Shown here piece after piece: positions 18,755 through 63,188 of a stretch of 64,000 nt of DNA. Position 1 is the stretch's first letter. Each line of letters opens with the position of its first letter. Location: the NCBI GenBank assembly GCA_036785375.1, contig JAWMAR010000030.1:6448001-6512000 (forward strand), read 5' to 3'. A program made the position numbers and the translations under genes. The notes beneath the pieces were generated by a model that was not told the origin of the DNA, made no database searches, and worked only from the letters and a program-made list of their open reading frames with translations. The DNA comes from Leucoraja ocellata (Eukaryota).

Positions 18755-19062
18755 GGGCGGCATGGTGACTCAGCAGTAGAGTTGCTGATTTACAGCGCCA
18801 GAGACCTGGGTTCGATCCTGACCACGGGTGCTTGTCCGTACAGAGTTTGTACATTCTCCCATGAACTGCATGGGTTTTCTCCGGGATCTCCGGTTTCCTC
18901 CCACACTCCAAAGACGTACAAGTTTGTGGATTAATTGGCTTGGTATAATTATAAATAGTCCCTGGTGTGTGTAGGATAGTGTTAATGTGCAGGGACTGCT
19001 GGTCAGCGCAGACTCGGTGGGCCGAATGGCATGTTTATGCACTGTATCTCTAAAACTAAAAA
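18755..19062 (+). mobile_element. HE1-type tRNA-derived V-SINE, full length
   Basis: tRNA-like head with B box gggttcgatcc, V-domain ccggtttcctcccacactccaaagac, CR1-like tail ending taaaactaaa. Confidence 0.9.
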
Positions 19063-26711: not shown

Positions 26712-27497
26712 GAACTATAGACCAGTTAGCCTGTCATCGGTGGTGGGGAAGATGCTGGAGTCAATCATAAAAGATGAAATAGCAGCACATTTGGCTAGCA
26801 GTAACAGGATCGGTCCGAGTCAGCATGGATTTATGAGTGGGAAATCATGCTTGACTACTCTTGGGGAATTTTTTGAGGATGTAACTAGGAAAATGGGCAA
26901 GGGAGAGCCAGTGGATGCAGTGTAGCTGGACTTTCAGAAAGCATTTGATAAGGTCCCACATAGGAGATTAGTGAGCAGAATTAGGGCACATGGTATTGGG
27001 GTAGAGTGCTGACATGGATAGAGAAGTGGTTGGCAGACAAGAAACAAGAGCAGCAATTAACGGGTCCCTTTCAGAATGGCAGGCAGTGACTAGTGGGGGT
27101 ATCGCAAAGGTTCGGTGCTGGGACCGCAGCTATTTACAATATATATTAAAGATTTAGATGAAGGGATTACAAGTAACATTAGCAAATTTGCAGATGACAC
27201 AAAGCTGGGTGGCAGTGTGAACTGTGAGGAGGATGTTATGAGAATGCAAGGTGACTTGGACAGGTTCACATAGAGAGTTGTGAGTGTGGAATTCTCTGCC
27301 TTAGAGGCCGGTGGAGGCCGGTTCTCTGGATACTTTCAAGAGAGAGCTAGATAGGGGTCTTAAAGATAGCGGAGTGAGGAGATATGGGGAGAAGGCAGGA
27401 ATGGGGTACTGATTGTGGATGATCAGCCATGATCACATTGAATGGCGGTGCTGGCTCGAAGGGCCAAATGGCCTCCTCCTGCACCTATTGTCTATTG
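26712..27497 (+). mobile_element. CR1 LINE with RT core and internal deletion
   Basis: QHGFMSGKSCLT, LDFQKAFDKVPH, GSVLGP and KFADDTKL motifs, then an abrupt jump at about 27266 to the 3' end. Confidence 0.92.
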
Positions 27498-42452: not shown

Positions 42453-43300
42453 AACGCATTTGGAGTACTGTGAGCAGTTTTAGGCCCCATAATCTGAGGA
42501 AGGATGTGCCGGCATTGGAGAGGATACAAAGGAGATTTACGAGAATGATCCCAGGAATGATTGGGTTAACATATGATGAGCTTGACGGCAATGGGCCTGC
42601 ACTCACTGGAGTTTAGAACGATGAATGGGTAACATTGATACTTACTGGATAGTGAAAGACTTGTATGGAGTGGATGTTATTGTTATAGTTACTTACAAAA
42701 TTCTTAAGGGGTTGGACAGGCTAGATGCAGGAAGATTGTTCCCGATGTTGGGGAAGTCCAGAACAAGGGGTCACAGTTTAAGGATAAGGGGGAAATCTTT
42801 TAGGACCGAGATGAGGAAAACATTTTTCACACAGAGAGTGGTGAATCTCTGGAATTCTCTGCCACAGAAGGTAGTTGAGACCAGTTCATTGGCTATATTT
42901 AAGAGGGAGTTAGATGTGGCCCTTGTGGCTAAGGGGATCAGGGGGTATGGAGAGAGGGCAGGTACAGGATACTGAGTTGATCATTTTGAATGGCGGTGCA
43001 GGCTCGAAGGGCCGAATGGCCTACTCCTGCACCTATTTTCTATGTTTCAATGTGGAGAGGATGTTTCCACTAGAGGGAGAGTCTAGGACCAGAGAATGTA
43101 GCCTCAGAATAAAAGGACGTACCTTGTGAAAGGTGATGAGGAGGAATTTCTTTAGTGAGTCTGTAGAGTTTATTGCCACAGAAGGTTGTGGAGGCCTAGT
43201 CAATGATATTTTTTAGGCGGAGATTGACATATTTTTGATTAGTGTGGTTGTCAGGGGTTACGGGGTGAAGGCAGGAGAAAGTGGTTGACAGGGAAAGACA
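42453..43300 (+). mobile_element. CR1 fragment (host) split by a younger CR1
   Basis: ...gagtggatgt | ggagaggatgtttccactag continuity across the insert. Confidence 0.85.
42690..43052 (+). mobile_element. Young CR1 3' fragment nested in an older CR1
   Basis: TYKILKGLDRLDAGRLFPMLGKSRTRGHSL...; near-identical to 57760-58137. Confidence 0.9.
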
Positions 43301-47460: not shown

Positions 47461-48014
47461 GTACTTGGGCATTTGCCAATAAATTGGACTTGACTTGATT
47501 TATTTCTGATGATTTTCCGGTGAAGCCATCACAGTTATGGAAGGGCATGGACATATTCTAATTGAGAAATATTCTGGCATTAAATATTCTAAATGACAGC
47601 GGGGAGCATCATTTTATACATCCTAAAGGTTTTGGAAATGTAACACTTCCAGATCCAACTCAACATTAATGTGCCTTTGCACTTGTTGCAGAAGCTTACT
47701 GTGTATGCTATCTACAGCTGCTGTTGTATTGTGTTGTATTGGGGCCACTGGTCCCTCATGGATGGACCACACATGAGCAATGACAATTTCACGCTTAGTC
47801 GCTACGAAGTTCTGTTTAAAAACAATGCCGTTTTAGGACTTGTGAATGTGATGTTCTAATTTCTTTGGGAGCAGCACCAACTGATGAGACTGTGGATCAC
47901 AAGATCACCTGTGGTTCACTCGGCTTACATCAGCCCTGTGAACTCAGCTCCAGAAAAGCAGCAGCCAGACAGAGGGCCACTGCGTTAAATCACAAATATG
48001 CAGAATCTGATGTA

Positions 48015-48152
48015 TCTTCTTCTTCTTGCGTATGACGTGCACAGTCTAAACTTGTAAGTTAACTTGTTCTATTTGATGTTGTTTGTACACGTCGGGTTGA
48101 CTGCATTAGTTGAAACAGGGTGGACCACGTGAAGGTTGCAATCTCCCACCCC
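48015..48152 (-). mobile_element. 138-bp non-autonomous retroposon with 5' HDV-like ribozyme and (AAG)n tail
   Basis: 10-bp TSD atctgatgta at 48005-48014 and 48153-48162; minus strand ends CATACGCAAGAAGAAGAAGA. Confidence 0.85.
48099..48152 (-). ncRNA. Minimal HDV-like self-cleaving ribozyme (predicted)
   Basis: P1 GGGGUGG/CCACCCU, P2 GAUUGCA/UGCAGUC, P3 ACC/GGU, L3 UUCACGU, J4/2 CUAA with a candidate catalytic C; no P4 helix. Confidence 0.75.
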
Positions 48153-48259
48153 ATCTGATGTACCAGAGCCCCAGGAAAAATATATCTAGCGAAGGGTGCA
48201 GTGTTGCATTCCAGCTGCGCAGATATAGTATAGTATGCGTGCCTTCATTGCTAGGGGCA

Positions 48260-62895: not shown

Positions 62896-63188
62896 GGGTG
62901 GCACAGCGGTAGTGCTCACAGTACCAGCGACCCGGGTTCGATCCCGACTACGGGTGCTGTCTGTACAGTTTTTGCATTCTCCCAGTGACTGGATGGGTTT
63001 TTGCTGAGATCTTCGGTTTCCTCCCACACTCCTAAGACGTGCAGGTTTGTAGGTTACTTGGCTTGGTATAAATGTAAATTGTCCCTAGTGTGTGTAGGGT
63101 AGTGTTAATGTGCGGGGATCGCTGGTCGGTGCAGACCCAGTGGGCTGAAGGGCCTGTTTCCGTGCAGTATATCTAAACTGAACTAAAC
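62896..63188 (+). mobile_element. HE1-type V-SINE
   Basis: cccgggttcgatcccgactacggg; V core; tail ctaaactgaactaaac. Confidence 0.9.

Follow-up and report, generated by a model that had tools for sequence, protein, structure and literature searches.

A short LINE derivative, most likely of the Vingi clade, whose 5' end carries a predicted P4-less HDV-like ribozyme, in Leucoraja ocellata

Results

The window analysed here is a stretch of 64,000 nucleotides of Leucoraja ocellata DNA (assembly GCA_036785375.1, contig JAWMAR010000030.1, positions 6,448,001 to 6,512,000). It contains a 138-bp retroposon that reads on the minus strand, its nucleotide 1 (G1) being position 48152 (Table 1). The sequence, coordinates and helix order that the earlier note gave for this element were re-read and all agree with the DNA, and the direct repeat atctgatgta said to bracket it is present on both sides; it lengthens to 12 bp when one mismatch is tolerated. 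The 54-nt head is followed by 71 nt and then by the (AAG)n tail. The linker between the two blocks shared with a LINE seems to repeat the A-rich end of the 5' block and may have arisen by local duplication. Compared with the commonest letters of 29 close copies (the alignment omits a 30th, a near-duplicate), the window copy differs by 6.4%, the mean of those copies being 3.7%. The element lacks the Pol III RNA-derived head of a classical SINE: as stated previously, there is no tRNA, 5S or 7SL head, since Rfam finds none in the window, ARAGORN finds no tRNA between 47500 and 48700, and the head corresponds to a LINE 5' end. The window also holds other abundant interspersed repeats, e.g. at 18844-19054, 42791-42979 and 62967-63177, apparently LINE 3' ends and a SINE-like family, and a weak reverse transcriptase (RT) fragment at 27097-27270.

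Table 1. Features of the 138-bp element and its flanks (window positions)
Feature	Position	Strand	Remarks
Whole non-autonomous element	48015..48152	-	138 bp
Predicted HDV-like ribozyme without P4, 54 nt	48099..48152	-	Descriptor and controls, pairing in copies, cross-family compensatory changes
Predicted cut site	5' of G1 at 48152	-	Coincides with element boundary
J4/2 strand	48106..48109	-	Predicted catalytic C at 48109
5-nt loop replacing P4	48110..48114	-	UUCAA here, UUCGA in most copies
Block common to autonomous LINE 5' end, nt 1-74	48079..48152	-	86-91% identity to L158, L159, L161, L162
Subfamily-specific linker	48063..48078	-	Three linker motifs absent from 7 LINE loci searched
Block common to LINE 3' end	48015..48062	-	Last ORF codons and stop, short 3' UTR, (AAG)n
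(AAG)n tail	48015-48027	-	Within 3' block
Target-site duplication, 3' side of element	48005..48014	.	Direct repeat
Target-site duplication adjoining G1	48153..48162	.	Direct repeat

The head could adopt an HDV-like fold, as first proposed in the earlier note, with every HDV helix except P4 in the right order. In this model, P1 pairs nt 1-7 with nt 30-36 and ends on a G1-U36 wobble, P2 pairs nt 10-16 with nt 48-54, P3 pairs nt 17-19 with nt 27-29 around L3 (nt 20-26), and P1.1 is the single pair C22-G37, so that P1, P2, P3 and P1.1 compose the nested double pseudoknot. J1/2 has 2 nt, a 5-nt loop occupies the place of P4 and J4/2 reads C44-U-A-A. A structure descriptor of the HDV fold has exactly one match on the two strands of the window, which is the 138-bp element, compared with one match in 1.92 Mb of Markov-resampled window and none in 1.51 Mb of resampled relative loci. 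At the catalytic position the descriptor is not specific for C, since its other J4/2 lengths admit A or T; forcing other bases there was rejected as an invalid control. The predicted cleavage point falls, as proposed, on the element boundary, with the target-site duplication (TSD) adjoining G1 and the G1-U wobble located precisely there.

Rfam gives no match at the gathering score across the window; around the element no HDV family reaches E<=10, and the element does not score on the CPEB3 ribozyme family RF00622, where at least 35 bits and a P4 were looked for. Energy folding recovers only P1 and P3 and is no better than for shuffled sequences (z 0.18 and 0.45), a result that is uninformative for this fold since pseudoknots are outside what the method can represent. 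In the 3' body, one stem forms in the window copy (z -2.6) and not in copy L004 (z -0.3).

Conservation among the copies is consistent with the proposed fold. Pairing is kept in 97.9% of cells across the 29 close copies, compared with 22-45% in slid controls, yet none of the 18 pairs shows a two-sided, compensatory change. By hand count of 100 listed among 1,747 matches to the ribozyme 3' half, J4/2 position 1 is C in 94, and positions 3 and 4 are A in 98 and 99, respectively. Position 2, at which the HDV ribozyme tolerates change, varies between subfamilies (G 51, T 33, A 14, C 2 in the same 100). Five of the six T variants at position 1 sit at CpG. This pattern, a C followed by a variable base and two A, is that expected for the HDV active site, and the C is also found in all five related LINE heads described below. 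Natural P4-less HDV ribozymes are reported to cleave in vitro (bioRxiv 2023.06.13.544163). The 2-nt J1/2 speaks against activity, a 1-nt spacer having nearly abolished that of another HDV-like ribozyme (PMC4908430).

To look for the fold outside the family, 80 metagenome loci of related LINEs (604 kb) were scanned with the descriptor on both strands. It matched six loci, two of them identical in sequence, giving five distinct heads. All six matches are in sense orientation and lie shortly 5' of the ORF, the rest of the 604 kb having none; 18 of the 24 loci with a scanned 5' region have no match, several of these loci being short or degenerate. Both sides have changed in 12 of the 17 stem pairs when the window element is compared with the five related heads, a set selected for pairing in which 101 of 102 paired cells are true by construction because the descriptor demands them. 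Helix covariation is thus seen across related heads and not within the family, and the independent cross-family support for the fold is that of position, strand and Rfam. Indeed, L220 scores 55.6 bits on RF00622, and L168, L178 and L164 are found below cut-off on RF02682. All five related heads have sequence at P4, which the window family does not. Two further heads were noticed: L167:424-560 looks HDV-like with a long insertion at L3 and was missed by the descriptor, and L174:58-145 is degenerate, with a P1 and J4/2 much like those of the window element and a long P4 region.

The element is a dispersed repeat (2,773 candidates in a genome search, 40 of them scored), and its copy number is well over a thousand. 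There are at least 1,747 exact matches to the ribozyme 3' half and at least 622 to a 25-mer spanning the junction in the middle of this subfamily. The 30 top copies, a set that favours full-length matches, all start with the G-run, and their upstream flanks are unrelated. A second sample was composed of the first 30 of the 622 matches, picked by their middle only. Here, 21 align from nt 1, five from nt 2-3 and four are truncated (two being duplicates), so that 26 of 30 reach nt 1-3, which bears out the expectation that full-length copies start at G1. When the first base is placed by the TSD (~10-12 bp), it is nt 1 in 15 copies, nt 2-4 in five (with a TSD ending in G), -1 or -2 in three and elsewhere in two; five have no TSD found. 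The element has thus been amplified as a unit with TSDs, as a bipartite non-autonomous LINE would be. At least three further internal-deletion subfamilies (L069, L070, L075 and similar) carry the same head and tail joined elsewhere, and all retain 80-100 nt of the 5' end. Every subfamily has 20-45 nt past the ribozyme. Head and tail are also present in four sequencing-run contig sets, with head-tail joints in three; one of the four is probably that of the host species, and the remaining three come from other organisms; being contigs, these data bear on sequence and cannot show RNA ends or expression.

The partner of the element was reached from its 3' tip. A pattern joining this tip to upstream letters foreign to the element gave 80 matches, 76 of which begin with TGG, in the frame W-M-S-T-L-D-L-Q-L-stop. 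Walking upstream led to a LINE of ~3 kb with a single ORF carrying APE and RT domains and no RNase H, as in Vingi. It shares both ends with the element, nt 1-74 at 86-91% and ~nt 91-138 at 83-89%, and together with the TSDs these shared ends support the earlier proposal that a LINE mobilises the short retroposon. On the other hand, the view of it as an independent "ribozyme SINE" had to be abandoned: since head and tail derive from one autonomous LINE whose ORF has been deleted, the element is a bipartite non-autonomous LINE. Position 1 is also where the full-length copies of the LINE start; L158 and L162 begin at G1, and L161, of which L159 is a duplicate, has an exact 12-bp TSD. All the LINE copies seen have broken frames. 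The best protein relatives, ~1,000 aa long, have APE and RT without RNase H, the closest at 71% (P0004). PDB relatives are limited to L1, R2 and a group II intron, and the protein atlas returned generic names only.

In an RT tree of 31 rows, rooted at the midpoint and holding no labelled RTE, Ingi or Vingi reference, the LINE belongs, together with L220, to a 100/100 group of 26 rows; five rows lie outside it, and the four of these that were scanned all have RNase H. By eye, the head of L220 matches the printed nt 2-74 of Vingi-2_Gav (PMC5786205 supplement) and the RF00622 consensus. Vingi is described as the RNase H-less, single-ORF sister of Ingi (PMC13708176). Given the absence of RNase H, the RT grouping with L220 and the likeness of the L220 head to Vingi-2_Gav, the partner LINE belongs most likely to the Vingi clade and not to RTE.

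An inverted head is frequent in truncated copies of this LINE. Among 27 distinct loci (29 picked by their 3' end only, with 1.5 kb visible upstream), four have a ribozyme head that is inverted and lies at the 5' junction or close to it. A strict census of loci from the same genome, a set enriched for 5' sequence, gave 20 rows, which reduce to ~10 distinct junctions once duplicates are merged. In eight junctions the two arms are separated by 690-2,500 nt of the element, and in two they nearly abut, the latter being the geometry of L1 twin priming. Of 14 loci examined, five have the two arms within a single TSD of 10-13 bp; of the other nine, three have only 8-nt matches, three have none and three are incomplete. 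Six inverted arms begin at RNA nt 79-85. An inverted arm running back towards G1, usually far from the start of the sense arm, was observed in L037, L042, L057, L059, L063, L064, L084, L115, L124, L130, L131, L135, L137, L139, L146, L147 and L155. These observations suggest that priming of the second DNA end takes place near the RNA 5' end irrespective of where the first strand stopped.

Searching the same genome with RF00622 revealed 56 matches over cut-off among 59 candidates scored, reaching 64.7 bits, and no match over cut-off in 14 control genomes. Of 25 loci fetched (L303-L327), 23 could be oriented, and most of these belong to a second LINE family, of which they form the 5' end. This family (37% to P0004, 52% to the L220 ORF) is ~3.1 kb long and starts at G1 of a P4-containing ribozyme. 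For instance, L309 extends over ~3.1 kb from G1 (position 443, + strand), ends in an (AAG)n tail and has an exact TSD of 11 bp. A third family with CPEB3-type heads comprises L308 (G1 at 421), L312, L316, L318 and L327; L308 and L312 are the same 213-nt deletion derivative, made of the head, the ORF start, an (AAG)n tail and a TSD. Finally, an older dispersed set, L320:3586-3656 (-), L323:3579-3657 (-) and L326:428-506 (+), matches the mammalian CPEB3 consensus including P4, and no ORF was found downstream of these three heads. Judged by this likeness, they are the best candidates for the CPEB3 ancestor type. Two related sequences were met outside this genome: L220:3106-3189 (+), from a metagenome, is a CPEB3-family ribozyme (55.6 bits) ~140 nt before a related APE/RT ORF, and the alligator SINE2-1_AMi holds a stretch reported to be similar to the 5' end of L220/Vingi-2_Gav.

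Discussion

We consider it likely that the element is an internally deleted form of the 3-kb LINE, most likely a Vingi, which has kept the first 74 and the last ~48 nt, that its predicted P4-less HDV head cuts before G1 and frees the RNA, and that the LINE protein recopies it in trans. The catalytic C44, with Mg2+, would cut the RNA and leave a 5'-OH at G1, and a cut at this point would provide unit-length RNA from any read-through transcript, as in L1Tc/NARTc, which cleave at +1, and in R2 (PMC3383444, PMC4035085, PMC6765202). The LINE protein may then bind the 3' block and prime reverse transcription at the nick, and the 5' module may also be held near the second nick. Such a location of the 5' module would explain both the retention of the two ends in all deletion subfamilies and the frequent inverted heads.

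Self-cleavage of the 54-nt head is itself a prediction from the modelled fold, and it could be that an HDV fold lacking P4 cuts slowly or not at all, that an internal Pol II promoter at G1 sets the 5' end and that the fold persists because it binds protein, protects the 5' end or serves to initiate translation. There is some reason to think so: the Pr77 stretch of L1Tc/NARTc combines ribozyme and internal promoter within the same first 77 nt (PMC3383444), HDV-like folds in R2 are reported to shield the 5' end and may work in the manner of an IRES, and all the subfamilies retain 20-45 nt past the ribozyme. Since cleavage and a promoter are compatible, the real alternative is confined to the absence of cleavage, and we regard it as unlikely: C44, A46 and A47 are conserved, whereas subfamilies differ at the base where HDV tolerates change, the G1-U wobble sits precisely at the element boundary, and natural P4-less ribozymes are active. 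The notion that an ordinary short repeat shows the HDV-like fold by chance could appeal to the lack of an Rfam match, the unremarkable folding energy and the missing covariation within the family. It has, however, a negligible probability and is already largely refuted, given the chance rate of about 1 per 2 Mb, the coincidence of the fold with the element boundary and the recurrence of the same fold, with different stems, at the 5' ends of related LINEs.

As to the mobilising LINE, the earlier note had favoured the RTE clade. RTE elements share microsatellite tails, bipartite derivatives and 5' ribozymes with the present family, and their domain layout is likewise a single APE and RT ORF without RNase H. 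Nevertheless, the LINE of this genome groups with RNase H-less relatives in the 100/100 group of 26 rows, including L220 with its Vingi-2_Gav-like head, and the RNase H of all four scanned rows outside it fits Vingi as the RNase H-less sister of Ingi. An RTE partner is thus highly improbable, and the Vingi assignment is retained.

The organization of the family recalls several known systems. In trypanosomes, NARTc and RIME, derivatives of L1Tc/ingi, likewise share the first ~75 nt and the 3' tip with their LINE, and the Pr77 HDV-like ribozyme cuts at +1, where the cut is predicted here. L1TcRz contains P4, it is proven to act both as ribozyme and as promoter, and L1Tc has RNase H, whereas the present family, in a 3.4-Gb genome, has neither P4 nor RNase H and a ribozyme activity that is predicted. 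Drosophila R2 SIDEs keep the 5' ribozyme and the 3' end after internal deletion and are mobilised in trans, as proposed here, but R2 is site-specific in 28S rDNA and has a much larger ribozyme, whereas the present family is dispersed, with TSDs and an APE-type LINE. Similarly, one Vingi LINE of hedgehog gave rise to several internal-deletion families (the Vingi-1_EE derivatives). The minimal HDV-like and theta ribozymes of gut phages have no P4 and carry the catalytic C first in J4/2, as does the window head; they process phage tRNAs, whereas the latter heads a retrotransposon. Finally, the mammalian CPEB3 ribozyme (RF00622 consensus) has an identical L3 (UUCACGU), the G1-U wobble, a short J1/2 and a single C-G P1.1 followed by U; unlike the window element, it has P4 and other stem sequences.

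Ribozyme-headed deletion derivatives are already known as R2 SIDEs and NARTc (L1Tc/ingi), and bipartite non-autonomous LINEs have been described for RTE, Ingi, Vingi and R2 (PMC5786205). The logic of the element is therefore established elsewhere, and the additions are the lack of P4, the probable assignment to Vingi, the geometry of the inversions and a lead to where the CPEB3 ribozyme came from. The literature searched holds no Vingi ribozyme, no animal P4-less ribozyme and no link between Vingi and CPEB3; Repbase, Dfam, patents and the 2011 Vingi and ribozyme papers lay outside that search and may record them. Vingi elements were first named Ingi, so that the "Ingi" ribozymes of 2011 may include Vingi, and Webb in 2009 reportedly described multi-copy HDV-like ribozymes in many animals. 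Vingi is absent from the six LINE clades named as bearing ribozymes in PMC5786205. Minimal HDV ribozymes have so far been assigned to phages, in a work whose search of human, mouse and protist genomes found none (bioRxiv 2023.06.13.544163). A term search of the paper on the ancestral CPEB3 ribozyme (PMC8233481) returned no mention of transposons or of origin.

By sequence resemblance, the simplest reading of the CPEB3-type heads suggests that the mammalian CPEB3 ribozyme is a retained or exapted Vingi head; the alternative is convergence on a small constrained fold. We hold as evenly balanced a broader proposal, in which the Vingi clade begins with an HDV-like ribozyme, here shrunk to a 54-nt P4-less form that would be the first such minimal one amplified in an animal, the CPEB3 ribozyme is the domesticated 5' end of an ancient Vingi or of a short derivative, and the 5' module is a preferred region of second-strand priming, giving rise to head-inverted insertions and bipartite derivatives.

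In this LINE, 5' inversions are frequent and their geometry differs from that of mammalian L1, to which 5' inversion has been described as nearly exclusive (PMC2912911, PMC4245944). Vingi would join the LINEs for which a 5' ribozyme is predicted. As Vingi is now used for gene writing with its UTRs retained (PMC13708176), this matters for the design of donor RNA. Furthermore, the family offers a eukaryotic, multi-copy case of a predicted P4-less HDV ribozyme, the copies of which constitute a natural mutational series, and the related LINE heads offer a testable origin for the CPEB3 ribozyme.
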